Numbered from the stretch's first letter, positions 27,276 through 54,896 are shown. The stretch is DNA of 64,000 bases from an uncultured bacterium (GCA_963719425.1 OY970382.1:244862-308861), one strand, 5' to 3'. Notes: generated by a model not told the origin, from the letters alone. Numbers and translations are program-made.

Positions 27276-27316
27276 ATACGTTTTTCTTTGGGGTTGTGTT
27301 GCGCTATAATCACGGT

Positions 27317-28684
27317 ATGGATGCCATACAGGGCATTTTGAATGCGGCAGGCGAGGTGTTTTGGTATGCGTGGTGGCTATGGATCCCCCTCATTTTGTTC
27401 CCGCTCTTTGAGTCCACGTGGCTTTTCTGGCGGCAGCAGGTTTTCAAGCGCGAATTGGAGTTCGTGCACATGGAGATCCGCATTCCCCGCGAGGTCAAGA
27501 GGAGCCCGAGGGCGATGGAGCAGGTACTCATGACCATCCACCAACTCCGGAACGAAGCGGCAGACCCGGAAGAAAAATGGTGGGACGGCGAGGTCACGCG
27601 CTGGTACGCGCTGGAGTTAGTAAGCTTCGGCGGAGATATCCACCTGTACGTACGCGCGTGGAGAAAGCAGAAGGAGATTATCCAGGCGGCGTTCTTTGCC
27701 CACTATCCTGACGTGGAGATCGTGGAAACGGATGATTATATTGACCGATTGCCTGCGAGCGTAGGAGAAATGTATAAAAGTGGCTACGACCTTTGGGGGT
27801 CCGAATTCGTCCTCGCGCGCGAACCTGCCTACCCTATCAGGAGCTACATGGATTTTGAATCGCCGGATGAGGAAAAACAGTTTGATCCCATGTCCACCTT
27901 CCTTGAGGTTCTCGGTAAGGTGAAGCGCGAGGAGGTTATATGCATTCAGTATCTCATCGCGCCGGCGAGCATGGATTGGAGAGACAGGTATCAACCCTTG
28001 GTTGAAGATTTGCGCACGAGGCATCAAAAGATTGGCGCGGCCGGAGGAGCGAAACACACCCTCGGGATGGAATTCCCGCACATCCTCCCAACATTCCCGG
28101 TGAAAAAGAGCGGAGAAGGTGAGGATAGTCTGCGCGTCATTGGAAGGGCGATCATGACGCGGACGCCGGGCGAGACAGATGTTTTAAAGGCGGTGGAGGA
28201 GAACATCGCTCTCCCGCCGTTTAATACCCTCATCCGGTTCGTCTATCTCTCGCCGAAGGAACTGTATTTTGACACGCTGCCGCGCCGTGGATTGCGCGGC
28301 GCATTCAACCAATATGCCGCTGCTGACCTTAACTGGTTTGAGCGGAACGAGAAAATCAGCACGAGGGTGAAGATATGGGACTTTCCGTTCTTTTTTCCGC
28401 ATGCACGCCTTGATCGCAGAAAAAACCGCGTGCTTGCGGACTATCGCGCGCGGGAAATCCCGCCGGAGACCTCCGTGGGGAAGCTTATCCGCTCCAAATT
28501 TTTGCATTGGGAGCATTCCCGTCGGGTTCTTTTGAGTGTGCGGTCGCTTGCGACGCTCTTCCATCCGCCAACCTATCAGGTGCTCACGGCACCACACATC
28601 AAACGGGTGGAGAGCAGGAAGGCGGGCGCGCCGGCGGGTCTTGCGATCTACGGCGGGGAAGAGGAAATGGAAAAGTTCAAATAA
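27317..28684 (+). CDS. hypothetical membrane-anchored protein (455 aa), first gene of the ATPase-1 operon
   Basis: N-terminal TM (VFWYAWWLWIPLILFPLF). No recognisable domain. TATAAT at 27305-27310 lies exactly 6 nt before the ATG. The ORF-track 5' extension to 26990 would overlap the divergent GlmU-like gene and was rejected. Confidence 0.6.
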   Translation: MDAIQGILNAAGEVFWYAWWLWIPLILFPLFESTWLFWRQQVFKRELEFVHMEIRIPREVKRSPRAMEQVLMTIHQLRNEAADPEEKWWDGEVTRWYALELVSFGGDIHLYVRAWRKQKEIIQAAFFAHYPDVEIVETDDYIDRLPASVGEMYKSGYDLWGSEFVLAREPAYPIRSYMDFESPDEEKQFDPMSTFLEVLGKVKREEVICIQYLIAPASMDWRDRYQPLVEDLRTRHQKIGAAGGAKHTLGMEFPHILPTFPVKKSGEGEDSLRVIGRAIMTRTPGETDVLKAVEENIALPPFNTLIRFVYLSPKELYFDTLPRRGLRGAFNQYAAADLNWFERNEKISTRVKIWDFPFFFPHARLDRRKNRVLADYRAREIPPETSVGKLIRSKFLHWEHSRRVLLSVRSLATLFHPPTYQVLTAPHIKRVESRKAGAPAGLAIYGGEEEMEKFK

Positions 28685-29259
28685 TGGTAATACTCACAAT
28701 TATCAAGTGGATCTGCATTGTGATTGTGATACTGCTCATTGTGGGCTTCATCTTTGCGTTTTATACGGGCTGGTTTTACCACCCGTTCATGGTGATTATC
28801 ACAATTATCAAGTGGATCTGCATTGTGATTATGATACTGCTCGCCGGGGGCTTCATCTTTGCGTTGTATAAGGGTTGGTCGTACCACCCGCGTTATGAAT
28901 TGGAAACGCGGAAAGCGAAGAAAATATTCACCCTGCGCGACGTGGTGACGAAGGAGCACTGGGAATCCATTGTGAGGAAGTTCTCGCTGGGAACGCCGGA
29001 GGCCGCGCGGGAAGCCGTCATTGAGGCCGATGCGCTCGTGGACACAGTGTTGAAGAGTATGGAAATTCCCGGGCAGCATCTCGCCGACCGGTTGTCCAAT
29101 CTGGAGCCGGAGGAAATTGCGTCGCTCGATCGGGCATGGCGGGCGCACCGCACGCGGAACGATCTCGTGCACACGCCGGGATTTGCGCTGACCGAAAAGG
29201 AGGCGCAAAAGACGCTTGAGGACTACGAGGCTTTTCTCAAAGATTTGGGAGTGCTATAA
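28684..29259 (+). CDS. two-TM membrane protein with duplicated TM segment and helical cytoplasmic C-terminal domain
   Basis: TAATG overlap with the upstream gene. Two near-identical segments (TIIKWICIVI(V/M)ILL..GFIFA.Y.GW.YHP). Confidence 0.55.
   Translation: MVILTIIKWICIVIVILLIVGFIFAFYTGWFYHPFMVIITIIKWICIVIMILLAGGFIFALYKGWSYHPRYELETRKAKKIFTLRDVVTKEHWESIVRKFSLGTPEAAREAVIEADALVDTVLKSMEIPGQHLADRLSNLEPEEIASLDRAWRAHRTRNDLVHTPGFALTEKEAQKTLEDYEAFLKDLGVL
28690..28893 (+). repeat. approximately 102-bp tandem direct duplication (about 90% identical) encoding two TM helices
   Basis: atcacaattatcaagtggatctgcattgtgatt ... appears at about 28693 and again at about 28796. Confidence 0.6.
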
Positions 29260-29266
29260 CGAGGCC

Positions 29267-30745
29267 ATGCCAAGAGCGGGAAAAATACAGATCATCAGAT
29301 ACGCGCCGCCGCCGCCGGAGCTGCCAATCTACGGGCAAGTGGATCCGGCGGAGGTTTCTTTCATCGGCCGCACGAACTATGTAGCGCAGCTTGAGGAGAA
29401 GAAATTTGTCTTTGGCATCAAGCGCCACGACCGGCGCCGGCATCTCTACATCGTGGGAAAAAGCGGCGTGGGGAAATCCAAGTTGCTTGAACTCCTCATC
29501 CGGCAGGATGTTGCGTACGGTCACGGGATGTGCATTATGGACCCGCACGGGGATGTGATAGACGCCGTCCTCGATTTCATTCCGGAGAATCGGATTAACG
29601 ACGTCGTGATCATTGATCCGACCGATATGAGCTATCCATCGTCCTTCAATCCTTTGCAGAACGTGGATCCCAGTTTCAAACACCAACTTGCGCAGGGATT
29701 GATCGAGGTGATGGAGAAGCAGTTCGGCGCGAACTGGACACCGCGCCTGGAGCATGTGTTCCGCTTCAGCGTCCTCGCACTCCTTGATTATCCGCATGCA
29801 ACGATGCGCGGGATGATTTCCATGCTCACGGACAGGAACTATCGACAGAAGGTGGTGGAATACATAGAGGACGACATGGTGAAGCGCTTCTGGGCCATTG
29901 AGTTCGCCGACTGGTCGGAAAAATTTGATACGGACGCGATCATCCCGCTCGTGAATAAGCTCGGCCAGTTCCTTTCCGACCCGCTTCTGCGGAACATCTT
30001 CGGCCAGAAAGAGAACAAGATCAATCTGGAAGAATTGATGGAGCAGAAAAAACTGATCTTCATCAATCTTTCCAAGGGTCGCCTCGGGGAAGAAAATTCA
30101 AGCTTCTTGGGCGCAATGTTCATTACGAAGATCAAGCAGGCCGGCATGGCACGCGCATCCATTCCCGAAAAGGACCGGCACGATTTTTATCTCTATGTGG
30201 ACGAGTTCCACAATCTCGTTACGGAAACCTTTGAGAACATTCTTACCGAAGCGCGGAAGTACGCATTGTGCCTTACGATAGCGCATCAATATATGGGCCA
30301 GCTTATCCAGCGCGTGCAGGCGGCAGTACTCGGGAACGTAGGAAGCATCATCATCTTCCGCATCGGCGGCGAGGATGCGGTCCACTTGAAGCCCGAAATG
30401 GCACCGATCTTTGACGTGAAAGACATGATCAACCTCGGCATGCAGGAATTTTTCATCAAAATGATGATTGACGGTGAAAGCTACGATCCTTTCTCTGCCG
30501 AAACACTCAAAGTGCTTCCGCCGCCGCACCGCTCGTTCCGAAAGGAAATCGTGGAACAGTCCCGGAAGAAGTACACCATCCCCGCCGACGCCGCGAAGAA
30601 ACTTATTCAAGAAGAAGAGGCCACCATCCTCCGGAGCGCTCAGGAAAAAGCCATTATTGAAGGCAAGCCGAGAGGCGGCGCGGGAGGCGGGGCGGGTGCC
30701 GCAAAAGAAGAGGCAGTAGACAAGACCCCCGAGCCTTTGATATAA
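29267..30745 (+). CDS. soluble FtsK/HerA-superfamily P-loop ATPase, VirD4/TraD (type IV coupling protein)-like, copy 1
   Basis: Walker A IVGKSGVGKSKLL, Walker B LYVDEFHNL, C-terminal sensor region LTIAHQYMGQL. No N-terminal TM. Paralogous to the gene at 40469..42430. Confidence 0.75.
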   Translation: MPRAGKIQIIRYAPPPPELPIYGQVDPAEVSFIGRTNYVAQLEEKKFVFGIKRHDRRRHLYIVGKSGVGKSKLLELLIRQDVAYGHGMCIMDPHGDVIDAVLDFIPENRINDVVIIDPTDMSYPSSFNPLQNVDPSFKHQLAQGLIEVMEKQFGANWTPRLEHVFRFSVLALLDYPHATMRGMISMLTDRNYRQKVVEYIEDDMVKRFWAIEFADWSEKFDTDAIIPLVNKLGQFLSDPLLRNIFGQKENKINLEELMEQKKLIFINLSKGRLGEENSSFLGAMFITKIKQAGMARASIPEKDRHDFYLYVDEFHNLVTETFENILTEARKYALCLTIAHQYMGQLIQRVQAAVLGNVGSIIIFRIGGEDAVHLKPEMAPIFDVKDMINLGMQEFFIKMMIDGESYDPFSAETLKVLPPPHRSFRKEIVEQSRKKYTIPADAAKKLIQEEEATILRSAQEKAIIEGKPRGGAGGGAGAAKEEAVDKTPEPLI

Positions 30746-30752
30746 TAATGTC

Positions 30753-30932
30753 ATGTTCGTGCACCCCGTTATTTTTGTCATTGGTGTTCTGTTCATCATT
30801 TACCTCGTTGCGGTCGATGTTCACATGCACCGGCGTGTCAAGCATTTGGAAAAGACCATGAGGAAGATGGAGGGCATGAACAGCGTGGAACATAAAAAGC
30901 CTCGCTGGGAGAATAAGGAGGATCTTTCATAG
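30753..30932 (+). CDS. small single-TM protein (59 aa)
   Basis: MFVHPVIFVIGVLFIIYLVAVDVHMHRRVKHLEK... Preceded by TATAAT (30741-30746) 6 nt before the ATG. Below the ORF-track size cutoff. Confidence 0.3.
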   Translation: MFVHPVIFVIGVLFIIYLVAVDVHMHRRVKHLEKTMRKMEGMNSVEHKKPRWENKEDLS

Positions 30933-31017: not shown

Positions 31018-31461
31018 TTACCCACCGATCCCCGCCTCACGAGAGGCGGGGTGAAGATTTTTTGGGGGATTATAAAACGCAAGAAAGGCCTCAATTATCT
31101 CCCGAAAGTTGCCGGCGCTCAACATGCCGATCTTTTTGATAAGACGTTTCGCGTCCAAAACCCTGACTTGGTTAAGAATCGCCATACGTTTCTTCTCGCC
31201 GTGTGCGACAGGAACATACCAGTTGCCAGTTTTTTGTTGCGTGGTGAGCGGGATGCCAAAAAAGGAATCGGCACTGAATTTTTTGAATATGATGACTGGA
31301 CGCGCGAACCGCTCGCCTTTGCCGTAAATCTCCACGCCGATATTCATCCCGATGCTGCACCACCAGATTTCGCCTTCCTTGAAAAGCGTTTTTGGTTTGG
31401 CGGTTTGCAGTATGACCGCTGTCCGCCACCAGCCAAGCAGCGCGGGAAAATATTTCAGCAT
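31018..31461 (-). CDS. MazF/PemK-family endoribonuclease toxin-like protein
   Basis: GEIWWCSIGMNIGVEIYGKGERFARPVIIF ... GIPLTTQQKTGNWYVPV ... ILNQVRVLDAKRL follows the PemK/MazF core pattern. No cognate antitoxin ORF is evident. Confidence 0.55.
   Translation of the reverse strand: MLKYFPALLGWWRTAVILQTAKPKTLFKEGEIWWCSIGMNIGVEIYGKGERFARPVIIFKKFSADSFFGIPLTTQQKTGNWYVPVAHGEKKRMAILNQVRVLDAKRLIKKIGMLSAGNFREIIEAFLAFYNPPKNLHPASREAGIGG
31031..31063 (+). terminator. intrinsic terminator (CCCCGCCTC-acga-GAGGCGGGG followed by TGAAGATTTTTTGG)
   Basis: GC-rich 9-bp stem plus a U-run downstream of the ATPase-1 operon. Lies inside the 3' end of the convergent MazF-like ORF. Confidence 0.5.
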
Positions 31462-31533: not shown

Positions 31534-33318
31534 ATGGCGGGCGAGACCAGAATTTGCCAAAACTGCAAGCAATCGTTCACGATTGAAGTCGAAGACTTTG
31601 ATTTCTATAAGCGAGTCGCCGTCCCGCCGCCGACCTTCTGCCCAGAGTGCCGAGCACAAAGAAGGATGCTGTGGCGAAACGAACGCGCCCTATATAAGAG
31701 AGCCTGCAACGCTCCCGGCCATACCGAAATGCTCATTGCGAACATTTCTGCCCAAACCCCAACGCCGGTGTACGATCAAGATTACTGGTGGTCAGATAAC
31801 TGGGATCCTCTTTCCTATGGCAGAGAATACGATTTCAGCAAACCTTTCTTTAATCAGTTGAAAGATCTTTTCCGCGTTTTCCCGCTTCCCAATGTAGTTA
31901 ACCTGGAATCGGTGAACAGCGACTATTGCAATTTCACCTATCAGTGCAAAAATTGCTATCTTGCCTTCGCGAGCAATCTCAACGAAGATAGTGCCTATCT
32001 TTGCCATGCGGAAAGCTGCAAAAGCTCCTTTGATCTTCTCGGCTGCAATTCGGATCAGTTTTGTTACGAATCCATTCATTCTCATAATTCGTACCAATCC
32101 GCATATTTGTTCTACTCCAACGGCTGCATACATTGCCGCTTTCTCTATAACTGTCGGAACTGCCACGATTGCTTTGGCTGTGTGAATTTGAGGAATGCGG
32201 AATATCAGATCTTCAATACGCAATACTCAAGAGACGAGTACGAGAGGAAGGTCAAAGAATTGGATTTGGGCAATTACTACACTAAGGAGGGCGTAGCGGC
32301 GCGATTCGGGAATCACATAAAGGCCTATCCCAAAAAGTACGCGACGGCCGTTCAAACCGTCGGGAGCACAGGGGACTACATTAGCCAACTAAAAAACTCT
32401 CATTTTTGCTTTGACTGCGAAGGTCCTCTTGAGGATTCAAAATATCTCATTTACGGTGTGCCGAATGCTAAGGATTGTTTTGACGGATATGGGATCGGGG
32501 AGGGAGCGGAACTCATTTATGACACGACTGTCGCCGGTGCATCTGCCAGCAGATCGCTCTTCTCCTTTGCGGCGGTCGGTGGTCGTTCCCATCAATATTC
32601 GTACTTTTGCCGCGGGTGCTCGAATATATTCGGCTGCATCGGCATCCGCAATAAGGAATATTGCATTCTCAATAGACAGTATAGTAAAGACCAGTATCTC
32701 GCATTGCTTCCGAAAATAATTGACCACATGAACGCGATACCTTACGTTGACGCGAAGGGCCGAACCTACGCGTACGGCGAGTTTTTCCCTTACGAGATAG
32801 GCCATTTTGCTTACAACGAAACAATCGCGCAGGAATATTTTCCACTGACGAAAGAGCAAGCTATATCTCAGGGCTACCGATGGTTGGATGTTGAAGAAAA
32901 GAGCCACGGAAAGACCAAGGATCCCGCCCATCTCCCCGCCCACACAAGAGACGTATCCGATGACATTCTCAAAGAAACGATCGGCTGTGCCCATGAGGGG
33001 AAGTGTGCCGAACAGTGCACTGTCGCCTTCAAGATAATCCCACAAGAACTTCAGTTTTACAAAGCGATGAATTTGCCATTGCCGCGCCTTTGCCATAATT
33101 GCCGCCACTACGAAAGATTGAAGCAACGCAACCCCTTCAAGCTTTGGGAAAGAGAGTGCAGCTGCAATGGCAGGGCGTCAAAAGATGGTATATATACCAA
33201 TGCCACTAACCATTTTCACAATGAGAATCGTTGTCCCAACACTTTTCAGACCTCCTATGCCCCGGACCGGCCGGAGATCGTCTACTGCGAACAGTGTTAC
33301 AACACGGAGGTAGCATAG
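31534..33318 (+). CDS. Cys-rich multi-zinc-ribbon protein, array member 1
   Basis: N-terminal ribbon CQNCKQSFTIEVEDFDFYKRVAVPPPTFCPECRAQRRM. Trp-rich YDQDYWWSDNWDP..YGREYDF. Two Cys-ladder repeats ending CFGC.NLRN..Y.IFN.QYS..EY. Conserved YGEFFP..FAYNET.AQ.YFPLTK. A second ribbon C..C..AFKIIPQELQFYKAMNLPLPRLCHNCR. C-terminal knuckle RPEIVYCEQCYN. Start chosen at MAGETRICQNC by analogy with its paralogs; an alternative ATG lies at 31501. Confidence 0.75.
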   Translation: MAGETRICQNCKQSFTIEVEDFDFYKRVAVPPPTFCPECRAQRRMLWRNERALYKRACNAPGHTEMLIANISAQTPTPVYDQDYWWSDNWDPLSYGREYDFSKPFFNQLKDLFRVFPLPNVVNLESVNSDYCNFTYQCKNCYLAFASNLNEDSAYLCHAESCKSSFDLLGCNSDQFCYESIHSHNSYQSAYLFYSNGCIHCRFLYNCRNCHDCFGCVNLRNAEYQIFNTQYSRDEYERKVKELDLGNYYTKEGVAARFGNHIKAYPKKYATAVQTVGSTGDYISQLKNSHFCFDCEGPLEDSKYLIYGVPNAKDCFDGYGIGEGAELIYDTTVAGASASRSLFSFAAVGGRSHQYSYFCRGCSNIFGCIGIRNKEYCILNRQYSKDQYLALLPKIIDHMNAIPYVDAKGRTYAYGEFFPYEIGHFAYNETIAQEYFPLTKEQAISQGYRWLDVEEKSHGKTKDPAHLPAHTRDVSDDILKETIGCAHEGKCAEQCTVAFKIIPQELQFYKAMNLPLPRLCHNCRHYERLKQRNPFKLWERECSCNGRASKDGIYTNATNHFHNENRCPNTFQTSYAPDRPEIVYCEQCYNTEVA

Positions 33319-33341
33319 TAGCTCTGGAGTAAAATAAAGAC

Positions 33342-35126
33342 ATGACCGCCGAGACCAAGACCTGCCAGAACTGCAAGCATTCGTTTGTGATAGAGCAGGA
33401 GGATGTGAATTTTTATCAGAAGATGACTGTCCCGCCGCCGACGTTCTGTCCGCTCTGCCGCGCCCAGCGGCGGATGGCATGGCGCAACGAGCGGGCGCTC
33501 TTCAAGCGGAAAAGCGATTTTGCAGGGAAGGAGATCTTTTCCGCGTTTGCGCCGGACGCACCAGTCAAGGTTTATGAGAAAGAGGTGTGGCTTACTGACC
33601 AGTGGGATCCGATGACGTACGGGCGCGATTATGATTTTTCGCGGCCGTTCTTTGAGCAATTCAAGGAGTTGCTCTATACTGTCCCACTCAAAAACCTGAA
33701 TTTGGTCGGCGGCACAAACAGCGATTATTGCAACAACTTTACCGACGCGAAAAATTGCTACTTGATTTTCAATGGAAATTATTCGGAGGATTGCATGTAC
33801 GGGAACGGCTTTACTAATTCAAAGCATTGCTTTGACACCTCGCATGTTGCAAAGTGCGAGCGTTGTTACGGCAGCTTTTGGCTCACCGGATGTCACAATG
33901 TCGTTTATTCTTCGCAGTGCGAGAATTCCTACGACCTGGCGTTTTGCCGCGATTGTGTAGGGTGTAACAGTTGCTTTGGATGTGCGGGGCTTCGCAACAA
34001 GTCATACCGTATTTTTAATGCGCAATACTCAAAAGAGGATTATGTGAAAAAAATAAAGGAGTTTGATCTGGGGTCGTATGAGGTCGTAGAGCAGCTGAAG
34101 CGGAAGGCGGGCGAGTTTTGGAGCACTGTTCCGATCAAATACATTGAAGGATTGCAAAATACCAACGTTTCCGGCAACTACATTGACCACTCGCGGAATG
34201 TGAAGCAAAGTTTCTTGGTGCGCGAGAGTGAGAACATCCATTACAGCCAGTATGTGCATGAACTGCCGGGAAGCCGCGATGTATGGGATTACACCGCATG
34301 GGGCGATTCCAACGAGCTTGTGTATGAGTGTTCCGCTTGTGGCATCGGCACGCACAACATAAAGTTTTGCTATAACGCACAGGAGAACGTGCACAACATT
34401 GAGTATTCCTATATGTGCGCCGGCTCCTCAGACCTTTTTGCCTGCGTGGGATTGCGGAAAAAACAATACTGCGTTTTTAATAAGCAATATTCAAAAGAGG
34501 AGTATGGCGCGTTAGTAGCTAAGATAAAATCCCATATGGACGCGATGCCGTATGCGGACAAAAAGGGGAGAGTATATAAATATGGTGAATTCTTTCCGGT
34601 TGAGCTCTCGCCCTTCGCGTACAACGAGACGCTCGCCCAACAGTATTTTCCCCTTACAAAACAAGCGGTGGAGGCAGCGGGTTTCTTCTGGCGTGATCCC
34701 GCCGAACGCAGTCACACTGCAACCGTTGAGGCCGCGAACCTGCCCGAAAATATCAAGAACGTAAAGGACGATATCGCCACAGCAACGATTGGTTGCGCGC
34801 ACAAGGGTTCATGCAACGACCAGTGCACCATCGCGTTCCGTATCATTCCCGACGAACTGAACTTCTACCGTTCCATGGGTATTCCGCTGCCGCGCCTCTG
34901 TCCCAACTGCCGCTTTGAGGAACGTATAGCGCAGCGGACGAAGCTCGCGGTGTTTCCTCGCGATTGCGAGTGCGCGGGAATCGCATCTGATAACGGGAAA
35001 CACAAAAACGCCGGTAAACATTTTCACGGCGAGGGCCATTGCCCCAATAAATTTGAAACTTGTTATCCGCCGGAGAGACCGGAGATCGTCTACTGCGAGC
35101 AGTGCTATAATGCCGAGGTGGCATGA
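33342..35126 (+). CDS. Cys-rich multi-zinc-ribbon protein, array member 2
   Basis: Same architecture: CQNCKHSFVIEQEDVNFYQKMTVPPPTFCPLCRAQRRM ... RPEIVYCEQCYNAEVA. Confidence 0.75.
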   Translation: MTAETKTCQNCKHSFVIEQEDVNFYQKMTVPPPTFCPLCRAQRRMAWRNERALFKRKSDFAGKEIFSAFAPDAPVKVYEKEVWLTDQWDPMTYGRDYDFSRPFFEQFKELLYTVPLKNLNLVGGTNSDYCNNFTDAKNCYLIFNGNYSEDCMYGNGFTNSKHCFDTSHVAKCERCYGSFWLTGCHNVVYSSQCENSYDLAFCRDCVGCNSCFGCAGLRNKSYRIFNAQYSKEDYVKKIKEFDLGSYEVVEQLKRKAGEFWSTVPIKYIEGLQNTNVSGNYIDHSRNVKQSFLVRESENIHYSQYVHELPGSRDVWDYTAWGDSNELVYECSACGIGTHNIKFCYNAQENVHNIEYSYMCAGSSDLFACVGLRKKQYCVFNKQYSKEEYGALVAKIKSHMDAMPYADKKGRVYKYGEFFPVELSPFAYNETLAQQYFPLTKQAVEAAGFFWRDPAERSHTATVEAANLPENIKNVKDDIATATIGCAHKGSCNDQCTIAFRIIPDELNFYRSMGIPLPRLCPNCRFEERIAQRTKLAVFPRDCECAGIASDNGKHKNAGKHFHGEGHCPNKFETCYPPERPEIVYCEQCYNAEVA

Positions 35127-36835
35127 CGACCGGAATCGAAACGCGCACGTGCCAGAATTGCAAGCAGGCGTTTGTCATTGATCCGGAGGACTTTCAGTTC
35201 TACGGGAAAGTTAGCGTCCCTCCGCCGACCTTTTGCCCGGACTGCCGTTTTCAACGGCGGCTTTTATTTTGGAATCCAATCTATCTTTACAAGCGGCCCT
35301 GCGATTTGTGTAAGAAGTTTAATGTGTCGGCGTATGCACCTGACGCGCCCTATACCGTGTATTGTCCTTTGTGTTGGTGGAGCGACAGCTGGGACCCATT
35401 GGAATACGGACGGGAGTACGATTTCAAACGCCCATTCTTTGAACAACTGAACGAGCTATGGCACACGGTGCCGTTGTGCGGCTTGTCTATGGATTTGCCG
35501 ACCGCGCGCTCCTCGCCCTATAATCACGACGCCGGCTATCTAAAAAATTGTTATCTCCTTTTTCATGCCGATACTTGCGAGGATTGTGCGTACGGTTACT
35601 TCTTGGACAAATCTCGAATGCTTTTTGATTGCACCGCCATGGAGCAGAGCGAGTACGGTTATGACTCCATGCACTCGTACAAAACAAACCGGTGTATCGG
35701 AACGCGGGACCAGCTCTCGGAATCGGTAGAGTGCCTCTTCTGCCGCGACTGCCAGGGCTGCCAGAGCTGTTTCGCCTCCGCGAACCTGAAGGGTCAGAAA
35801 TATTATGCGTGGAACAAGCCGCTTTCCAAACAAGAATATCTTACGGAAATCGGTAAGTATGATTTGGGATCCTACCGCGCCTATCAAGCGTTGCAGAAAA
35901 AAGCCGCGGAGCACTGGAAGACGCAGATACCCAAATCGGAATACAACGAGTTCGTGGAGAACTGCACCGGCTCAAATGTTTTCTTCTCCAGGAACGCCAA
36001 GGATTGCATTGAGGTGTACAACGTGGAGGATGGTCGGTATTGTTACCGCATGTTCGCGCCTACCAACAAGGATTGCTATGACGTTTCCATGTGGGGGAAG
36101 AATCTCTCGTTGACGTACGATAGCTGTGTGGTAGGAGAAGATTCCACACGGCTCCGGTTTTCCTATCAGTCCGGCATCAACCTTAGCGATGCTGAATATT
36201 GTCAACTGTCCACGGGTGGTTCCCACCATTTTGGCTGCGTTTCAATCAAGAAAGGGGAATATCGGATTTTCAACAGGGCATATTCCGCAAAGGAGTATGA
36301 GGCGCTAACGGGAAAAATCCGGAAGCATATGAATGAAATGCTGTATGCGGATGCGCGAGGTAACGTCTATCGCTATGGCGAGTTTTTCCCACCGGAGATG
36401 TCACCCTTCGCCTATAATGAAACGCTGGCGCAGAATTTCTTTCCGCTCACGAAGGAAAAAATCGCCGCAAAGAAATACGTGTGGCGAAATATTGAAGTGA
36501 AAGAAATGGAGGCAACCATGTCGTCAGCCGATTTGCCCGATCATATAAAAGATGTCCCTGACGACATTCTCCAGGAAACCATAAAGTGCGAAACGTGCAG
36601 CCGCTCGTATCGGATCGCTGAGATGGAACTGGCCTTCCTTCGGCAGATGAAGCTGTCCTTGCCGCGCCGCTGCCCTTTCTGCCGGGTAAACGAGAAATTG
36701 AACATTTGGGTGAAGGACAATGAACGCAACCGGCGCACGTGTGCCGATTGCGGCGTCGCGATGGAGTCAAAGTATCGGGAAGACGAAGCGCCGGAGGTAT
36801 ATTGCCGGAAGTGTTATTTGCAAAGGATAATGTAG
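35123..36835 (+). CDS. Cys-rich multi-zinc-ribbon protein, array member 3
   Basis: ATGA overlap with member 2. N-terminal ribbon plus a second ribbon PCDLCKK...PYTVYCPLCWWSD. C-terminus diverged (EVYCRKCYLQRIM). Confidence 0.75.
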   Translation: MTTGIETRTCQNCKQAFVIDPEDFQFYGKVSVPPPTFCPDCRFQRRLLFWNPIYLYKRPCDLCKKFNVSAYAPDAPYTVYCPLCWWSDSWDPLEYGREYDFKRPFFEQLNELWHTVPLCGLSMDLPTARSSPYNHDAGYLKNCYLLFHADTCEDCAYGYFLDKSRMLFDCTAMEQSEYGYDSMHSYKTNRCIGTRDQLSESVECLFCRDCQGCQSCFASANLKGQKYYAWNKPLSKQEYLTEIGKYDLGSYRAYQALQKKAAEHWKTQIPKSEYNEFVENCTGSNVFFSRNAKDCIEVYNVEDGRYCYRMFAPTNKDCYDVSMWGKNLSLTYDSCVVGEDSTRLRFSYQSGINLSDAEYCQLSTGGSHHFGCVSIKKGEYRIFNRAYSAKEYEALTGKIRKHMNEMLYADARGNVYRYGEFFPPEMSPFAYNETLAQNFFPLTKEKIAAKKYVWRNIEVKEMEATMSSADLPDHIKDVPDDILQETIKCETCSRSYRIAEMELAFLRQMKLSLPRRCPFCRVNEKLNIWVKDNERNRRTCADCGVAMESKYREDEAPEVYCRKCYLQRIM

Positions 36836-36881
36836 CCCACTTGGCAGCTTGTGAAAAGGAGTAAAATGGAGGGGTAAGGCC

Positions 36882-38624
36882 ATGGCTGCAGAGGCTAAAA
36901 CTGAAGCTGAGACCAAGGTCTGCGAGGCTTGCAAGGGAGAGTTCGCGGTTGAACCGGAGGACCTTGCGTTCTACGGGAAGTTCGGTGTGCAGGTGCCGAA
37001 GATGTGCCCGCGGTGCCGCGCGCGGCGGCGGATGGCGTTCCGGAACGAGCGCGTGTTCTACAAGCGTAAGTGCGACAAGTGCGGGCGCGAGGTGGTTTCC
37101 ATGTACAGTCCGGGGAAGCCGTATATGGTGTATTGCTATGAGTGCTGGTTCGCGGACGATTGGGATGCGTTGAGCTACGGGATGGAATACGATCCCGCGC
37201 GGCCGTTCATGGAACAGTTCCGCGAACTTTGGGAAAAGGTGCCGAAAGTCGCGCTGGTTTACATGCGGAGCGTGAACTCGGAATACGTGAACATCTCGGC
37301 GGACAACAAGGACTGCTACATGCTGGTGGAATCGTCCAACAACGAGGGGTGCATCAATTGTTATTGGGTTCAGCAGTGCCGTGATCTTGTGGATGTCTCG
37401 TTCTCGCATCAGACGGAGCTTTCCTATGAGTGCGACGATTGCTTCAATTGCTACGGACTGCAGTATGCGAAAGGTTGCCACGATTGCCGCAATGGTTATT
37501 TCTTGTTTGACTGCGTGGGATGCTCGGATTGCATCGGTTGCACGAACCTCCGCAGCAAGCAGTATCATATTTGGAACGAGCCGCACTCTAAAGAGGAATA
37601 TGAAGAGCTTCTCGCGGAGATGAAGCTTGATACGCACGCCGGGGTGGAGGCGGCGCACAGAAAGTTTGAGGAATTCTTGAAAACCCAGCCGCACAAGTTC
37701 GCGGAGATTATCAATGCGCCCGGTTCAACCGGCAATTACATCAAGAACGCCAAGAATTGCCGGCAGATTTTCCACTGCTACGACGCGGAGGATGCGAAAT
37801 ACGGCATCCACGTGTGGCGCGACGCAAAGGACTGCATGGATGTGGATACGGCGGGCCGTGGCGCCCGATTGATCTACAACTCCATCAATTCGGGCATTGA
37901 GGTTTCAAATTATGTCGCCTGTGCGCAGTGCTGGACGTGTTCGTTCATGGAATATTCCTATTATTGCTTCAACTGCAACCATTGCTTCGGCTGTGCCGGA
38001 CTTCGGAAGAAAGATCGCTGCATTCTGAACCACGAGTACGATAAGGCGTCGTATGAACGTTTGCGCGACGCCATCGTGTCCGAGATGAAAGCAAAAAGGG
38101 AGTACGGCGAGTTTTTCCCGATTGCGATTAGCGCGTTCGGTTACAACGAGAGTGCCGCACAGGAGCAGTTTCCACTCACGAAGGCGGAGGCGATTGCGCG
38201 CGGGTGCAAGTGGGAGGATACTCCGCGCGGCACGTATGGGAAGGGAACAATCGGATGGGACAAGGTTCCCGATACCTATGATGGGTTCAATCCGACCAAG
38301 CACGTTTTCACCTGCACGAATTGCAAAAGGAATTATCTTGTCATTCCCAACGAGGCCACGTTCTACAAGAAGCTCGCGATTCCCGTGCCGCGCCTATGCC
38401 CCGATTGCCGCCACGAACGCCGCTTTGCCGCCCGCGGCCCGAACCGTGTTTCGCGGCAGCACTGCGATTGCGCGGGCACGACGTCGGAGAACGGACGATA
38501 TCGCAACACGCGGGCCCATGCCCACGCAAACGCCCCATGCCCCAACGAGTTTTGGACAAGCTATGCTGCAAACGACGAGCGGATCGTCTACTGCGAGCAG
38601 TGCTACAATGCAGAGGTGGTGTAG
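36882..38624 (+). CDS. Cys-rich multi-zinc-ribbon protein, array member 4 (GC-richer)
   Basis: VCEACKGEFAVEPEDLAFYGKFGVQVPKMCPRCRARRRM, CDKCGREVVSMYSPGKPYMVYCYECW ... RIVYCEQCYNAEVV. Noticeably higher GC than its siblings. Confidence 0.75.
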   Translation: MAAEAKTEAETKVCEACKGEFAVEPEDLAFYGKFGVQVPKMCPRCRARRRMAFRNERVFYKRKCDKCGREVVSMYSPGKPYMVYCYECWFADDWDALSYGMEYDPARPFMEQFRELWEKVPKVALVYMRSVNSEYVNISADNKDCYMLVESSNNEGCINCYWVQQCRDLVDVSFSHQTELSYECDDCFNCYGLQYAKGCHDCRNGYFLFDCVGCSDCIGCTNLRSKQYHIWNEPHSKEEYEELLAEMKLDTHAGVEAAHRKFEEFLKTQPHKFAEIINAPGSTGNYIKNAKNCRQIFHCYDAEDAKYGIHVWRDAKDCMDVDTAGRGARLIYNSINSGIEVSNYVACAQCWTCSFMEYSYYCFNCNHCFGCAGLRKKDRCILNHEYDKASYERLRDAIVSEMKAKREYGEFFPIAISAFGYNESAAQEQFPLTKAEAIARGCKWEDTPRGTYGKGTIGWDKVPDTYDGFNPTKHVFTCTNCKRNYLVIPNEATFYKKLAIPVPRLCPDCRHERRFAARGPNRVSRQHCDCAGTTSENGRYRNTRAHAHANAPCPNEFWTSYAANDERIVYCEQCYNAEVV

Positions 38625-38631
38625 TTAAGAC

Positions 38632-40425
38632 ATGGGGCCTGAAACGAAAACCTGTCAAAATTGCAAGCAGCCGTTCGTCATTGATCTGGAGGATTTTCGG
38701 TTTTACGAGAAAATTAATGTCCCGCCGCCCACGTGGTGCCCAGATTGCCGGCTGCAACGGCGGCTTTCGTTTCTGAACCACCGCACGCTTTATAAGCGGA
38801 ATTGCAGCTCTTGCGGGAAAAGCATGGTGTCGCTGTATGACACCGGCGCGCCTTTTCCCGTGTATTGCCCGGACTGCTGGTGGTCGGACAAATGGGATTC
38901 AAAAAGCTACGGGCGGCCGTATGATTTTTTGCTGCCGTTCTTTGAGCAATTCAAGCGGCTAAGCATGGGAGTTCCGCGCATGTCACTTGAGGGGCTCCAT
39001 GAGACGTGGATCAATAGCGAATACAACAACCTTGCCCACGAACTCAAAAATTGCTATCTGCTTTTCAATTCGGACGTGGACGAGAATTGCCTGTATGGTT
39101 CGGAGGTGGAGAGCTCAAATAATTGCGTGGATACGACCATGATAGAGTCATCGGAACTTTGCTATGGAAGCATCAATCTCGTGAACTGCCACCGCGTGTT
39201 TTTCTCCGCCGATTGTGTGGACTGCCACAATGTGTGGTTCGGAAGAGACCTCGCGAATTGCAACGACTGCTTCGGCTGCACGAATTTGCGCAACCGAAAG
39301 TATCATATTTTCAACAAATCATATTCCAAGGAAGATTATGCAAAGGAGATAGCGACATTCGGTTTAAGTTCGCGGGCCGGCATCGCAGAATGCATGAAGC
39401 GGACGCAGGCGCTTTCTCTAAGTTTCCCCCGCAAGTTCATGCACGGGAGGCACAACGTGAATGTGTCGGGCGACTATGTGAATTACTCAAAAAATACCCA
39501 CGATGCCTACATTGCCCTCGGCGCCGAGGACTGCCGCTATGCGATGTGGCTCATTATAAAGCCGAACAGGGACTGCTACGATTTTACCCAATTCGGCGGC
39601 AATGCCGAGCGCGTGTACGAGTCACTCGTGTGCGGGAAGGGCGTGAGCGATACCAAATTCAGCATAAATTGCGTTGATGAGATTTCTTCTGTGACATACT
39701 CCGACCATTCCTTTTGTTCAAATGCCTTCGGCTGCGTGTCACTGAAGAAAGGGAACAAGTACTGCATTTTGAACAAGCAGTATGCCGAGGATGAATATCG
39801 AGCGCTCGTGCCGAAGATCGTCGCCCATATGAACGAGATGCCGTATGTTGACCGACAAGGAAGAGAATATCGCTACGGGGAATTTTTCCCGCCGGAGTTG
39901 TCTCTCTTCGCCTACAACGAAACGGAGGCGCAGGGATATTTCCCGCTTACGAAAGCAGAGGCGCTGCGGCAGGGCTTCTTGTGGAAAGAGCCGGATACGA
40001 AAAGCTATAAAATTACGTTAAGCGGTGCGCAGATTCCTGACTCGCTTCGGGATACGCCGGATGCCATCGTGGACGTGGACGAGGTGCTTGAATGCGCCCA
40101 CAAAGGACAATGTAACGAGCAGTGCGCCACGGCATTCCGCATCATCCCCGACGAACTTACGTTCTACAAGAAATTTTCGCTGCCGATTCCCAATCTGTGC
40201 TCCAATTGCCGCTCCGCAGCGCGGCTTGCGCTACGAAACGGACACAAACTTTGGCACAGGAAATGCGAGTGCGCCAGACAAAAGTCCGATAACGGCGCGT
40301 ATCAAAATGCGGCGGCACATTTCCACGCCCAAGGCCACTGTCCCAACGAATTTGAAACTTCCTACGCTCCCGACCGACCCGAGATCGTCTACTGCGAGCA
40401 GTGCTATAACGCGGAGGTGGTATAG
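38632..40425 (+). CDS. Cys-rich multi-zinc-ribbon protein, array member 5
   Basis: CQNCKQPFVIDLEDFRFYEKINVPPPTWCPDCRLQRRL, CSSCGKSMVSLYDTGAPFPVYCPDCWW ... RPEIVYCEQCYNAEVV. Confidence 0.75.
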   Translation: MGPETKTCQNCKQPFVIDLEDFRFYEKINVPPPTWCPDCRLQRRLSFLNHRTLYKRNCSSCGKSMVSLYDTGAPFPVYCPDCWWSDKWDSKSYGRPYDFLLPFFEQFKRLSMGVPRMSLEGLHETWINSEYNNLAHELKNCYLLFNSDVDENCLYGSEVESSNNCVDTTMIESSELCYGSINLVNCHRVFFSADCVDCHNVWFGRDLANCNDCFGCTNLRNRKYHIFNKSYSKEDYAKEIATFGLSSRAGIAECMKRTQALSLSFPRKFMHGRHNVNVSGDYVNYSKNTHDAYIALGAEDCRYAMWLIIKPNRDCYDFTQFGGNAERVYESLVCGKGVSDTKFSINCVDEISSVTYSDHSFCSNAFGCVSLKKGNKYCILNKQYAEDEYRALVPKIVAHMNEMPYVDRQGREYRYGEFFPPELSLFAYNETEAQGYFPLTKAEALRQGFLWKEPDTKSYKITLSGAQIPDSLRDTPDAIVDVDEVLECAHKGQCNEQCATAFRIIPDELTFYKKFSLPIPNLCSNCRSAARLALRNGHKLWHRKCECARQKSDNGAYQNAAAHFHAQGHCPNEFETSYAPDRPEIVYCEQCYNAEVV

Positions 40426-40468: not shown

Positions 40469-42430
40469 ATGGAGGAAGCCCCTGACAAAAACGTAATTTA
40501 TTTCGCACGAACCGATTTTCGCAATCAAGATCGGCTTTTTGGTATCAAGCGGACCGACCGGCGCCAGCACATGTACGTCATAGGAAAAACGGGCACTGGT
40601 AAAAGCGCGCTCCTCAACAATATGGCTGTGCAGGACATCGCGAACGGCGAGGGGCTTTGCGTCGTTGATCCGCACGGCGAGCTTGTGGAGGGACTCATGA
40701 GAAGGATCCCGGAGGAGCGAATGAAAGACGTTATCTATTTCAATCCGGCCGATACGGATTTTCACATCGGCTTCAACGTGCTGGAGCTGCCTGACCCGAG
40801 GTACAAGCACCTTGTGGCGTCGGGACTCATGGGAATTTTCACGAAGATCTGGGCAGGTGTCTGGTCGCCGCGCATGGAATACATTTTGAATAATTGCGTG
40901 CTCGCGCTCTTGGATACTCCAGGTTCCACGCTCCTTGGTATCCCTCGGCTTCTGACCGACAAAGATTACCGGCAGAAGATCATCGCGAACATAAAGGACC
41001 CCGTCGTGAAGGCCTTCTGGATCCATGAATTTGAAGGATGGCAGGACCGGTTCAGGAACGAAGCCATCGCGCCGATACAAAACAAGGTAGGCCAATTTCT
41101 TTCCACCTCTCTCGTCCGCAACATCGTCGGTCAGTCAAAGAGCACCGTGGACATTTTTGACGTGATGAACGAGGGGAAGATTTTCCTCGTGAACGTTTCC
41201 AAGGGCCGCATCGGAGAGGATAACTCCGCGCTTTTGGGTGCCATGCTCATCACGAAGATTCAGCTTGCTGCCATGGAACGCGTCCGCATTCCCGAAGAGG
41301 AACGCGTGGACTTTTACCTTTATGTGGACGAGTTTCAGAACTTCGCTACGGATTCCTTCGCGGGAATTCTTTCCGAAGCGCGAAAGTACCGTTTGGACCT
41401 TATCCTTGCGCACCAGTATGTCGGGCAGCTCGTTACTGATACTTCCACGAGGGTGCGCGACGCGATCTTCGGCAACGTGGGGACGATGATCATATTCCGC
41501 GTGGGTGCCACCGATGCAGAATTTCTGGAGAACGAGTTTACACCAGAGTTCACGATAGAAGACATCGTGAACCTCCCGAACTACTCCATCTATCTGAAGC
41601 TCATGGTGAGCGGGGTGACCTGCCGCCCGTTTTCTGCGATCACGCTCCCACCGCTTCAGGTGAAAACCTCCGCGGTGGTGGAATCCGAGATCATCAAAAT
41701 GGCGCAGAAGCGCTATTCCCGGCCGCGCGAGGTTGTGGAAGAGGAAATTAACCGTTGGAGCGGGGTAATGGGACCGCCTGCGTCTGCGGAAGGAGAAAAG
41801 AAAGAGGGAGGCGCAACAAGATACGAAGCGATATGCTCTTCGTGTGGCAAGATGACGACGTTGCCGTTTGAACCGACCCCCGGCCGGCCGGTGTATTGCC
41901 GCGAGTGTCTGAAAAAAATTGAGGCCGGCGAACTTCAGCCGGTGCGGATGCCGCGCGTGCCGGTCGCACGCGCAAGGCCGCAAAAGAAATACGCGGAAGA
42001 TTTGAGTTATCTCGGCATTGAATTCCCGGAACAGGGAGCGCCAAGCGAATCGCAGCCAGCGGTGAGAAGGGCGCCCGCGCCAGTGCGTCCCATGGGCGAA
42101 GGGGCGGGGACATGGACGCCGGTTTCCGGACCAAAAGCAGCTACCGTGCCAGCCGCCGCACCGGCTGCCGCGCCATCCGAGCCGGTTGGGCCGACACTTT
42201 CGCTGTCCGAATTGAAGTCGGCCGACCGGAAACCGAAGTTGAAGAAAACACAACAGCGCGAGGAGATTAATATTTCCGAGCTTCGGGAGGCGATCAAGGC
42301 GTCTTTGAACGCAGATGCCGGTGCGAGCTCCACGCAAACCGCCGGGACAGAGAAGGATGGTACTGCCCCCGCTCCCGTCCACGCTGGCGAGGAGGAGGAA
42401 AACGGCGAAGAGGAGCACTTGACGCGCTAA
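40469..42430 (+). CDS. VirD4/TraD-like P-loop ATPase copy 2, with C-terminal zinc ribbon and a long Ala/Pro/Glu-rich tail
   Basis: Walker A VIGKTGTGKSALL, Walker B LYVDEFQNF, sensor LILAHQYVGQL. C-terminal CSSCGKMTTLPFEPTPGRPVYCRECL (C-x2-C-x17-C-x2-C), then an approximately 180-aa low-complexity tail. Confidence 0.75.
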   Translation: MEEAPDKNVIYFARTDFRNQDRLFGIKRTDRRQHMYVIGKTGTGKSALLNNMAVQDIANGEGLCVVDPHGELVEGLMRRIPEERMKDVIYFNPADTDFHIGFNVLELPDPRYKHLVASGLMGIFTKIWAGVWSPRMEYILNNCVLALLDTPGSTLLGIPRLLTDKDYRQKIIANIKDPVVKAFWIHEFEGWQDRFRNEAIAPIQNKVGQFLSTSLVRNIVGQSKSTVDIFDVMNEGKIFLVNVSKGRIGEDNSALLGAMLITKIQLAAMERVRIPEEERVDFYLYVDEFQNFATDSFAGILSEARKYRLDLILAHQYVGQLVTDTSTRVRDAIFGNVGTMIIFRVGATDAEFLENEFTPEFTIEDIVNLPNYSIYLKLMVSGVTCRPFSAITLPPLQVKTSAVVESEIIKMAQKRYSRPREVVEEEINRWSGVMGPPASAEGEKKEGGATRYEAICSSCGKMTTLPFEPTPGRPVYCRECLKKIEAGELQPVRMPRVPVARARPQKKYAEDLSYLGIEFPEQGAPSESQPAVRRAPAPVRPMGEGAGTWTPVSGPKAATVPAAAPAAAPSEPVGPTLSLSELKSADRKPKLKKTQQREEINISELREAIKASLNADAGASSTQTAGTEKDGTAPAPVHAGEEEENGEEEHLTR

Positions 42431-49753: not shown

Positions 49754-49756
49754 AGA

Positions 49757-50554: not shown

Positions 50555-50566
50555 GGAGTCGCGCGG

Positions 50567-51292: not shown

Positions 51293-51333
51293 AAAGTTAG
51301 CACCAGGTGTAGTTTGCTTGCAGGGGGTGCGCT

Positions 51334-51504: not shown

Positions 51505-51651
51505 GATTTCAAGACTTTTACCTCGCTTGGAGTGCTCCCGAGTGGAAGGGCGGGCAATGGATATTTTCTCCACCTGCACCGCCCTCCAAACCTGAATCCA
51601 CAAACGCGTTGCGGATTGAGGTTTGGAAAGGATCGCACGGAGAAATTTGCC

Positions 51652-54891: not shown

Positions 54892-54896
54892 AGGCG

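Follow-up and report, generated by a model that had tools for sequence, protein, structure and literature searches.

A large cysteine-rich protein family encoded alongside VirB4/VirD4-type ATPases in Patescibacteria

Introduction

What is the role of five large, mutually related and extremely cysteine-rich proteins that are encoded side by side next to ATPases of the type IV secretion superfamily? Patescibacteria, which account for much of bacterial diversity, are ultra-small and mostly uncultured, with genomes of about 1 Mb. The window analyzed here, meaning the whole 64-kb stretch of DNA (64,000 nucleotides), stems from an organism with a genome of less than 1 Mb, and about 9 kb of it is devoted to these five genes. 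For the ATPases, a 2025 survey counted 5,713 VirD4-type homologues across 2,918 Patescibacteria genomes, of which just 148 lay near virB4, and did not settle what they do (PMC12102498). Our 64-kb window contains no virB4, channel or relaxase genes, and the absence of virB4 near its ATPases is consistent with most Patescibacteria coupling-protein homologues being far from virB4 (PMC12102498).

Results

A Five-Gene Array of Cysteine-Rich Paralogs

A sequence-only reading had described the region 31534..40425 as a run of five co-directional paralogs, and ORF calls together with full-length alignment bear this out: all five lie on the plus strand, encode proteins of 570-597 aa and share 33-47% pairwise identity. 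Paralog 1 (31534..33318, 594 aa, 35 Cys), for which starts at 31501 and 31534 are both possible and alignment with the other paralogs favors the latter, is followed by paralog 2 (33342..35126, 594 aa, 34 Cys), paralog 3 (35123..36835, 570 aa, 34 Cys), paralog 4 (36882..38624, 580 aa, 42 Cys) and paralog 5 (38632..40425, 597 aa, 36 Cys). The intervening gaps measure 23, -4, 46 and 7 nt, the negative value being the ATGA overlap of paralogs 2 and 3; this overlap had been recognized correctly, whereas the range of 8 to 47 nt first given for the gaps was off by one. Likewise, the richness in cysteine is real, at 5.7-7.2% of residues against 0.3-1.1% in seven neighboring proteins, although the original figure of about 40 per protein was slightly high for counts of 34-42. 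Neither a TM segment nor a hydrophobic N-terminus is present in the family proteins (maximum KD19 1.05), in line with the initial view that signal peptides and TM segments are lacking.

A recent amplification or gene conversion as the origin of the array is ruled out: DNA repeats between the copies are just 60-80% identical and limited to the conserved ends, and each paralog resembles orthologs from other genomes more closely than it does its array neighbors. Orthologs of paralog 2 reach 70% identity elsewhere, and those of paralog 4, the most divergent of the five, are 58-64% identical in other genomes; an order of paralog types that is colinear across genomes was not found. A promoter and terminator scan returned 19 against 13.2±3.7 in shuffled sequence and 30 against 20.9±4.8, not clearly above expectation, so that no operon boundaries are claimed from it. 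Rfam and tRNA scans found no RNA genes in the 64-kb window.

Domain Architecture

The layout of the proteins is pseudo-symmetric, with a zf_Tbcl-like and a CxxC-x17-CxxC-like ribbon followed by a Cys ladder (R1), a degenerate second ladder (R2), a YGEFFP block and the same ribbon pair again. In paralog 5, these modules occupy residues 1-52 (N1 ribbon), 53-85 (N2 ribbon), 121-245 (R1), 271-400 (R2), 405-452 (YGEFFP block), 485-536 (C1 ribbon) and 537-597 (C2 ribbon), with a W/D-rich linker at 86-120. The motif blocks by which the proteins had been described are all present, except that the C-terminus of paralog 3 is divergent and the first ribbon of paralog 4 deviates. The internal repeats proposed at the outset are genuine, as hhalign relates R1 to R2 with a probability of 99.6% (E 6e-24) and the N-terminal to the second ribbon with 98.9% (E 2e-17); the loss of the cysteines of the second N-terminal ribbon from paralogs 1 and 2 is equally evident in the alignment.

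Conservation peaks in the YGEFFP block and the terminal ribbons, where the top residue has a mean frequency of 0.65-0.69, and is lowest in the ladder bodies (0.44-0.48). The Cys4 sets of N1, C1 and C2 are conserved at 89-100%. The cysteines of R1 all stand in a strict three-residue register that ends in CxxCxxCxxC; for most ladder cysteines, conservation is only 30-70%, and R2 retains few of those it would have had. An AF2 model of paralog 5, the member chosen for modeling, is of moderate confidence (pLDDT 82.2, pTM 0.84, R bodies 60-72). R1 and R2 could represent two coil-stack modules, built of units of about 12 residues that bear a Cys/Asn/aromatic ladder and leading into the conserved YGEFFP...FAYNET block. 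Such bodies invite comparison with narrow beta-solenoids that carry residue ladders, such as insect and plant antifreeze or ice-binding proteins and curli CsgA; unlike these, however, the family lacks a signal peptide and has zinc ribbons on either side of its ladders; it shares no sequence homology with them, and the model shows few regular strands.

Relation to Known Zinc-Domain Families

Can the ribbons be assigned to a named family? Searches of Pfam-A and NCBIfam with the five proteins, and of Pfam with 60 family members, yielded sub-threshold treble-clef matches alone, and the earlier statement that the combination of motifs fits no named family stands. The N1 ribbon and its second copy (residues 485-536) meet the pattern of zf_Tbcl (PF13451), in which about 24 residues separate two CxxC pairs and F, FY, K and P are conserved between them. 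In N1, C8, C11, C36 and C39 are conserved at 98-100% across 190 members, and F15, F24, Y25, P31, P33 and R40 at 90% or more. Nevertheless, paralogs 1, 2 and 5 score 17.0-18.1 bits against PF13451 and do not reach its gathering cutoff of 24 bits; across 60 family members, 22 give a match, the best at E 3e-4. For the CxxC-x17-CxxC domain (TIGR04272/PF23477 zf_Tbcl_2), zinc binding has been demonstrated experimentally in small proteins of M. mazei (PMC12704099). The C-terminus of paralog 3 has its canonical form (CADC...CRKC; Pfam zf_Tbcl_2 E 0.0098) with exact spacing, but at 16 bits remains below the cutoffs of 27 and 36; the other paralogs carry a Cys/His variant. The terminal ribbons resemble both families in Cys spacing and flanking motif, but differ in scoring below the curated cutoffs, in capping a 590-aa protein as a duplicated pair and in a second ribbon (N2) that is devoid of cysteines in 44% of family members. 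That these are multi-zinc proteins is inferred from sequence alone, which reveals no more than the Cys4 geometry of the terminal ribbons.

The Neighboring Motor Genes

The conserved cluster opens with a gene for a membrane-anchored protein of about 456 aa (27314..28684, plus strand); the ORF is listed from 26990, and homolog alignment places the start near 27314. This upstream partner resembles the N-terminal domain of VirB4, and in relatives and in phrog_5156 it forms a fusion with the ATPase. The product of the following gene (28681..29259, plus strand) is a small membrane protein that combines two hydrophobic helices with a soluble tail of about 100 aa; profile searches found no family for it. 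The gene carries a 102-nt tandem duplication in this window (28684-28785 and 28789-28890, 87% identity) and occupies the same position, after the membrane protein and before ATPase 1, in 64 related loci.

ATPase 1 (29264..30745, plus strand) is a soluble P-loop ATPase of the VirD4/TrwB/VirB4 superfamily with the Walker A motif GKSGVGKS. It matches phrog_5156 (E 1e-56), Pfam TrwB_AAD_bind above cutoff (E 2e-10) and the NCBIfam VirD4-like CD1115 model below cutoff (E 9e-17), and is very highly conserved, with 67-96% identity across related loci. ATPase 2 (40469..42430, plus strand), a paralog of ATPase 1 at 43% identity by BLASTP with a low-complexity tail, matches TrwB_AAD_bind (E 2.6e-12) and bears a C-terminal CxxC-x17-CxxC zinc ribbon (aa 451-483, nt 41819..41917) that is recognized by Pfam zf_Tbcl_2 (E 3.6e-15) and TIGR04272 (E 9e-16). 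This ribbon is present in 26 of 33 ATPase-2-type proteins of related loci, and the N2 and C2 profiles of the Cys-rich family align to it with about 80% probability (E 1e-5). ATPases 1 and 2 score 40.6 and 46.8 bits for TrwB_AAD_bind (cutoff 20.5) and 30.6 and 24.9 bits for T4SS-DNA_transf (cutoff 20.1); the NCBIfam VirD4/VirB4 equivalog cutoffs are far from being reached, and there is no PDB sequence match. Neither has a hydrophobic window that could serve as an N-terminal TM anchor, the TM helices being found in the two upstream proteins.

The array had been described as bracketed by two VirD4-like ATPases. Both ATPases are real, but a PemK/MazF-like toxin gene on the minus strand (31018..31461, Pfam PF02452 E 9e-10) separates ATPase 1 from the array. 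This toxin gene does not belong to the conserved cluster; its place in related loci is either vacant or, in 32 of them, taken by a CutA1-like "divalent ion tolerance" gene, which is absent in this window.

Linkage of the Family to the ATPases

The sequence-only reading had proposed a survey of gene neighborhoods for co-occurrence of array and ATPases. Linkage of the two is conserved and reciprocal: family-seeded loci contain an ATPase within 10 kb in 26 of 79 cases, and ATPase-seeded loci contain family genes in 60 of 80, always on the same strand. Where at least 2.5 kb of sequence is available downstream of an ATPase-1 gene, a family gene starts within 2.5 kb in 47 of 62 cases, all same-strand, and in each of the 186 pairs of adjacent family genes the two run in the same direction, with a median spacing of 16 nt. 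The family genes may stand between ATPase 1 and ATPase 2 in either order, both layouts being recurrent, or on both sides; conservation extends upstream to the membrane partner and the small TM protein. The ATPase is the sole strongly recurrent neighbor of family genes outside housekeeping functions, which are represented by MreB, a sigma-70 region 4/HARE-HTH protein, a SecF-like protein and an aminoacyl-tRNA synthetase-like protein, the last named from sequence alone without a Pfam scan.

Extent of the Family

The family is specific to Patescibacteria and uncharacterized, and with at least 5,000 clusters at 50% identity it is large and unannotated. A cluster holds 1 to 10 copies, and the paralogs are old and conserved; many further copies lie far from any ATPase. 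One divergent member additionally carries a fused GNAT-like domain. A literature search found no description of the family in Patescibacteria or CPR papers. The CPR "cysteine-rich" proteins of an earlier report are large, extracellular and equipped with a signal peptide (PMC4736985), and were rejected as members of the same family.

Discussion

What can be concluded about the function of these proteins? Their conserved, operon-like cluster with VirB4/VirD4-like motor ATPases makes them the first candidate partners for those motors, and the initial interpretation of the locus is supported overall. Our leading reading, which we hold tentatively and at not quite an even chance, is that the paralogs are zinc-stabilized clients, as cargo or adaptors, of a secretion-system-derived, Paceibacteria-specific translocase; zinc binding, contact with the ATPases, localization and translocation are all inferred here. 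The motor would derive from a type IV secretion system, its components being the VirB4-N-like membrane protein, the two-TM protein and a pair of soluble P-loop ATPases of the VirB4/VirD4 type that are paralogs of each other. Constant handles that engage the motor could be provided by the conserved terminal ribbons, which are of the same type as that on ATPase 2, and the more variable ladder bodies might carry the paralog-specific function. Most likely, the proteins would then be motor clients, either cargo that is translocated, by analogy to the substrate paralogs arrayed next to T7SS and T4SS ATPases, or adaptors through which cargo is presented. A copy number of 1 to 10 with old, conserved paralogs is typical of substrate families. 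A bolder and rather unlikely version is that the cluster is an unrecognized T4SS-derived protein-export or fiber-assembly system specific to Paceibacteria, in which the split VirB4-like motor and the ribbon-bearing ATPase export Cys-ladder solenoid proteins that polymerize on or decorate the cell surface, for instance in host attachment.

Alternatively, the treble-clef ribbons might bind DNA or RNA and deliver or process it for the ATPases in uptake or export, as relaxosome accessory proteins do for conjugative coupling proteins. We consider this unlikely without dismissing it. VirD4, VirB4 and FtsK-type ATPases include DNA translocases, each family protein has four treble-clef-type ribbons, with the same ribbon on ATPase 2, and ATPase 1 has a weak NCBIfam match to the DNA-translocating ATPase CedD (E 3e-8, far under cutoff). 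However, the family proteins are near-neutral to slightly acidic (pI 6.1-6.5, net charge -2 to -8) without a markedly basic region, the cluster encodes no relaxase or nuclease, and profile searches with the five proteins and 60 members matched no nucleic-acid-binding family.

Less probable still is that family and ATPases are merely co-located by passive synteny in a reduced genome, the family working on its own, for instance as a scaffold in the cytoplasm or as an enzyme relying on the invariant YGEFFP...NET block. The recurrence of housekeeping genes beside the family, the many copies distant from any ATPase and the GNAT-like fusion would allow for this; yet gene order around the ATPases varies while adjacency and strand are kept, which is unexpected for passive synteny, and ATPase 2 and the family have the ribbon domain in common.

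Similarly improbable is a role in metal handling, with the proteins as high-capacity thiolate buffers or chaperones for Zn, Cu or Cd and the neighbors reflecting metal homeostasis. The 34-42 cysteines per protein, the strict register of R1 and the CutA1-like gene of related loci point this way, but most ladder cysteines are just 30-70% conserved, the majority of those in R2 being lost, and at 6-7% the cysteine content is far below that of metallothioneins. VirB4/VirD4-type ATPases are not known to transport metal, and the function of CutA1 is itself unsettled.

We give hardly any weight to iron-sulfur redox proteins with a [4Fe-4S] center at the CxxCxxCxxC end of R1; no Fer4 family matched among 60 members at E up to 1 and the motif lacks the Pro of CxxCxxCxxxCP. 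An anti-phage or conflict system, pairing HerA/MADS-like ATPases with diversified sensor or effector paralogs, is just as remote: the ATPases match mad8 (E 7e-11 and 2e-14) and, weakly, HerA models in PADLOC, a MazF toxin lies within the locus and distant ATPase relatives occur in large Bacillus phages, but the family itself has no PADLOC match and no relative in an IMG/VR scan or, by tblastn, in GenBank phages, its paralogs are ancient instead of rapidly diversifying, and the strong conservation of ATPase 1 with stable operon partners across many genera is unlike patchy defense islands.

How does the proposed motor with its presumed Cys-rich clients compare with known systems? Closest are the type IV coupling proteins (VirD4/TrwB/TraD) and VirB4 (TrwK), including the "orphan" homologues of Patescibacteria (PMC12102498), and TrsD, a homolog of the VirB4 N-terminus. 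Here, however, N-domain and ATPase are separate genes, the ATPase polypeptides have no TM anchor, and channel, pilin and relaxase genes are missing near the locus; our literature search found no adjacent array of Cys-rich proteins described for any T4SS. The likeness to type VII secretion loci, with their FtsK-like ATPase EccC, membrane protein EccE and Esx/PE/PPE substrate arrays, is organizational only, as the family has no Esx/WXG100 homology, EccB/C/D are absent, and Cys-rich proteins of about 590 aa are not small helical hairpins.

The family and its architecture merit a Pfam entry. Should the export or fiber reading hold, it would account for thousands of "orphan" VirD4-type ATPases in Patescibacteria. 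At least in the Paceibacteria/Minisyncoccia lineage, the locus places VirD4-type ATPases in a conserved operon with a VirB4-N-domain-like membrane protein, a small TM protein and 1-10 copies of a large Cys-rich family. The puzzle of the orphan coupling proteins is thereby turned into testable questions: whether the ribbons dock on the ATPases, whether the Cys-rich proteins are exported, and which metal they bind.

Results

A tandem array of cysteine-rich paralogs

Five consecutive open reading frames on the forward strand, at 31501/31534..33318 (paralog 1, for which the paralog alignment favours the ATG at 31534), 33342..35126, 35123..36835, 36882..38624 and 38632..40425 (paralogs 2 to 5), encode paralogous proteins, as the sequence-only reading had claimed; they align end to end with pairwise identities of 33-47%. 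Of the gaps of 8 to 47 nt and the ATGA overlap it had described, the overlap stands, but the measured distances are 23, -4 (the overlap), 46 and 7 nt; its figure of about 40 cysteines is slightly high, with actual counts of 34-42 per paralog (5.7-7.2%, against 0.3-1.1% in seven neighbouring proteins). All of its motif blocks were recovered, the C-terminus of paralog 3 being divergent, and the alignment bears out the loss of the second N-terminal ribbon's cysteines in paralogs 1 and 2. The proteins have a pI of 6.1-6.5 and, in line with the proposed absence of signal peptide and TM segments, neither a hydrophobic segment (maximum Kyte-Doolittle 19-residue mean 1.05) nor a signal-like N-terminus. 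DNA repeats among the genes are limited to the conserved ends, at only 60-80% identity. Reading frames, full-length alignment, cysteine content, motifs and weak DNA repeats thus confirm the array far beyond chance.

Module architecture

Profile-profile comparison with slices of a 60-sequence family alignment delineates the modules, numbered here on paralog 5. The two Cys-ladder bodies, R1 (residues 121-245) and R2 (271-400), match each other with a probability of 99.6% (E 6e-24), the central region being a duplication. The N-terminal ribbon N1 (1-52) is homologous to the C1 ribbon (485-536; 98.9%, E 2e-17), and the second N-terminal ribbon N2 (53-95) weakly to the C-terminal knuckle C2 (541-597; 87%). 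N2 and C2 each align to the CxxC-x17-CxxC domain of the downstream ATPase 2 (~80%, E 1e-5), a genuine C-terminal ribbon of this type (E 4e-15), and paralog 3 has a CxxC-x17-CxxC with the exact spacing at its C-terminus. From these homologies, the ATPase 2 alignments and the end of paralog 3, we deduce a layout of a zf_Tbcl-like plus zf_Tbcl_2-like ribbon pair, R1, R2, the YGEFFP block and a second such pair.

Over 190 full-length members, the cysteines of N1 (C8/11/36/39), C1 (C488/498/523/526) and C2 (C545/570/588/591) are 89-100% conserved, whereas only 56-76% of members have the four of N2. R1 ends in a near-invariant CxxCxxCxxC (207-216; 73-97%), and R2 retains only C368 and C378 (94% and 90%). 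All R1 cysteines share one 3-residue register, spaced 12, 12, 12, then 6, 3, 9, 3, 9, 3, 3, 3, and (K/E)(N/D)C.(Y/F) opens each ~12-residue unit, a pattern that reads as that of tightly stacked coils bearing ladders of Cys, Asn/Asp and aromatic residues. Conservation is highest (0.65-0.69) in the termini, the R2 tail and the YGEFFP...FAYNET...FPLTK block, and lowest (0.44-0.48) in the ladder bodies. An AlphaFold2 model of paralog 5 from the same alignment has a mean pLDDT of 82 and a pTM of 0.84, but since the ladder bodies reach only 60-72 and R1 shows few regular strands, a solenoid fold is consistent with sequence and model without being established.

A large family without annotation

The claim of an unrecognised family holds: Pfam and NCBIfam gave nothing above cutoff for any of the five paralogs, and over 60 members the only recurrent Pfam matches are the sub-threshold zf_Tbcl (22/60, best E 3e-4) and zf_Tbcl_2 (5/60). 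PDB sequence and profile searches with the family returned no match, PHROGs a single weak one (R1 to phrog_15341, of unknown function); neither relatives in IMG/VR and GenBank phages nor a description in the literature searched were found. Database relatives are all named 'hypothetical protein' and come from Patescibacteria. The family forms 5,144 clusters (50% identity) at E <=1e-3 and 2,169 at E <=1e-30. One representative at 50% identity, P0362 (731 aa), is a divergent member with cysteine-less ribbons, whose N-terminal ~150 aa resemble a GNAT acetyltransferase by eye; it could represent an uncommon gene fusion or an error of gene calling.

Scanning a single genome for each species yielded >583 relatives. 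Almost all of the 79 loci retained carry a Patescibacteria label (Jorgensen-, Staskawicz-, Nomura-, Giovannoni-, Lipton-, Sungii-, Magasanik- and Moranii-bacteria, Minisyncoccia and, as labelled, 'Saccharibacteria'), and two short contigs with family genes are binned as Proteobacteria or Bdellovibrionales. Tandem arrays are usual, with a maximum of 10 copies in 17 kb, and adjacent genes are co-directional in 186/186 pairs (median gap 16 nt). Colinear paralog order between genomes was not found. As each window paralog has closer relatives in other genomes (50-66% identity in the scan, 70% in the large database) than within the array, the paralogs are inferred to be ancient and maintained; recent duplication is ruled out by the same comparison.

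Linkage to a putative split VirB4-like machinery

The genes flanking the array, ATPase 1 (29264..30745, +) and ATPase 2 (40469..42430, +), had been called VirD4-like, and both products exceed the Pfam TrwB_AAD_bind cutoff. They are paralogs (43% identity) with intact Walker motifs; neither has TM segments or PDB sequence relatives. Between loci, ATPase 1 keeps 67-96% identity.

An ATPase homolog, the top recurrent neighbour, lies within 10 kb in 26/79 family-seeded loci, against a rough chance expectation of ~5% (assuming ~2 such genes in ~850). Other recurrent neighbours are MreB, a sigma-70 region 4/HARE-HTH protein, a SecF-like protein, CutA1 and a ~720-aa protein named aminoacyl-tRNA-synthetase-like from sequence alone. 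In the other direction, family genes are present in 60/80 metagenomic loci seeded on ATPase 1, the remainder being mostly short contigs. Where at least 2.5 kb is available downstream, 47/62 ATPase-1 genes have a family gene within that distance, in every case co-directional, and an array sits directly upstream of most others. The proposed co-occurrence of array and ATPases thus recurs both ways, with the caveat that the sample seeded on ATPase 1 is made up of close relatives (75-96% identity). ATPase 1-array-ATPase 2 (the window, L023, L040, L097, L109, L142, L155) and the opposite order are both recurrent.

Upstream of ATPase 1 lie genes for a membrane protein of ~456 aa with N-terminal hydrophobic helices (27314..28684; 66 related loci), whose homologs carry PF26449, and a small 2-TM protein (28681..29259; 64 related loci). 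The latter measures ~192 aa here against ~170 aa in relatives; a 102-nt tandem duplication in its gene (28684..28890, +; 87% identity) doubles the hydrophobic helix. A third ATPase type of 790-800 aa, with VirB4-N-like and P-loop parts fused, adjoins family genes in related genomes (L029:3178-5550, L073:10654-13059, L079:12983-15355, L102:15674-18052); the N-terminal 360 aa of its 790-aa form are homologous to the 27314..28684 protein (hhalign 98.2%, E 4e-14), and the phrog_5156 profile (824 positions) spans both partner and ATPase. On these two grounds the membrane protein and ATPase 1 are predicted to be a split VirB4-like unit, split and fused forms apparently both existing among related genomes. 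phrog_5156, which both ATPases match together with the VirB4-N-like partner, is an unknown-function family from Bacillus phages of the SPO1-like and giant kinds; its phage records, such as Bacillus phage G gp156 (JN638751.1:91999-93177), all carry the annotation hypothetical.

Neighbouring genes

The window lacks virB4 proper as well as any relaxase, pilin or channel gene; the cluster is surrounded by genes for glycosylation, an operon for pyrimidine biosynthesis and genes of ABC transporters. A PemK/MazF-like toxin gene (31018..31461, -; E 9e-10) separates ATPase 1 from the array, leaving too little space for an antitoxin gene upstream of it. A strong promoter-like site (30973-31000, +) would read antisense across the toxin gene into the array. 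Immediately 3' of ATPase 1, a 59-aa ORF of uncertain gene status with one hydrophobic helix (30753..30932, +) follows an 11/12 promoter-like site (30717-30746).

The complete-looking de novo pyrimidine operon (46504..56003, -) encodes carbamoyl-phosphate synthase small and large chains, aspartate carbamoyltransferase, a dihydroorotase-like protein, dihydroorotate dehydrogenase, OMP decarboxylase and a phosphoribosyltransferase, and deserves mention because Patescibacteria are usually described as lacking nucleotide synthesis (PMC12857230). A giant 3,941-aa ORF in a higher-GC stretch (6056..17881, -; GC up to 0.67), with Ig-like, MBG, polysaccharide-deacetylase and purple-acid-phosphatase-N domains, probably encodes a surface protein; an NTF2-fold immunity domain is matched only weakly in it, below threshold.

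Discussion

What can be inferred about the role of these proteins? The best-supported reading, with function unproven, is that they are dedicated clients of a secretion-system-derived motor. The elements that all paralogs use to dock on the motor would be the conserved ribbon pairs and YGEFFP block, one ribbon type being common to family and ATPase 2, and whatever property is specific to each paralog would reside in the variable ladder bodies. Given the linkage, we favour cargo over adaptor, at somewhat less than an even chance, because variable copy number, old conserved paralogs and the lack of a Sec signal resemble the T7SS/T4SS substrate families found beside ATPases. Cytoplasmic adaptors are the somewhat less likely form of the client reading. 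Nucleic-acid adaptors are a rival to it.

Metal buffering, another rival, draws support from a CutA1-like gene (PF03091, 'divalent ion tolerance') that separates ATPase 1 from the first Cys-rich gene, in the same direction, in 32 of ~160 related loci (e.g. L011:4373-4687, L040:619-972, L146:11523-11828). This gene, absent from the window, might be a fourth member of the cluster and a pointer to metal biology. A further rival has the Cys-rich proteins as Fe-S proteins. That the four terminal Cys4 sites bind zinc is inferred from their motif and from zinc binding measured in CxxC-x17-CxxC proteins (PMC12704099), an inference that does not cover the ligand of the ladder cysteines. The cluster as a defence system is a further rival; PADLOC returned no match for the family. 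Mere co-location of family and ATPases is the reading that the adjacency, persisting despite rearrangement, argues against, favouring a functional link over passive synteny.

The original proposal of an undescribed module of Cys-rich array and ATPases holds up and is extended here. The family is unannotated, large and lineage-specific, with a definable new architecture, and the VirB4/VirD4-type machinery that houses it is a variant not described before. With function unproven, the finding's worth lies in naming specific candidate partners for the puzzling orphan homologues of coupling proteins in Patescibacteria.
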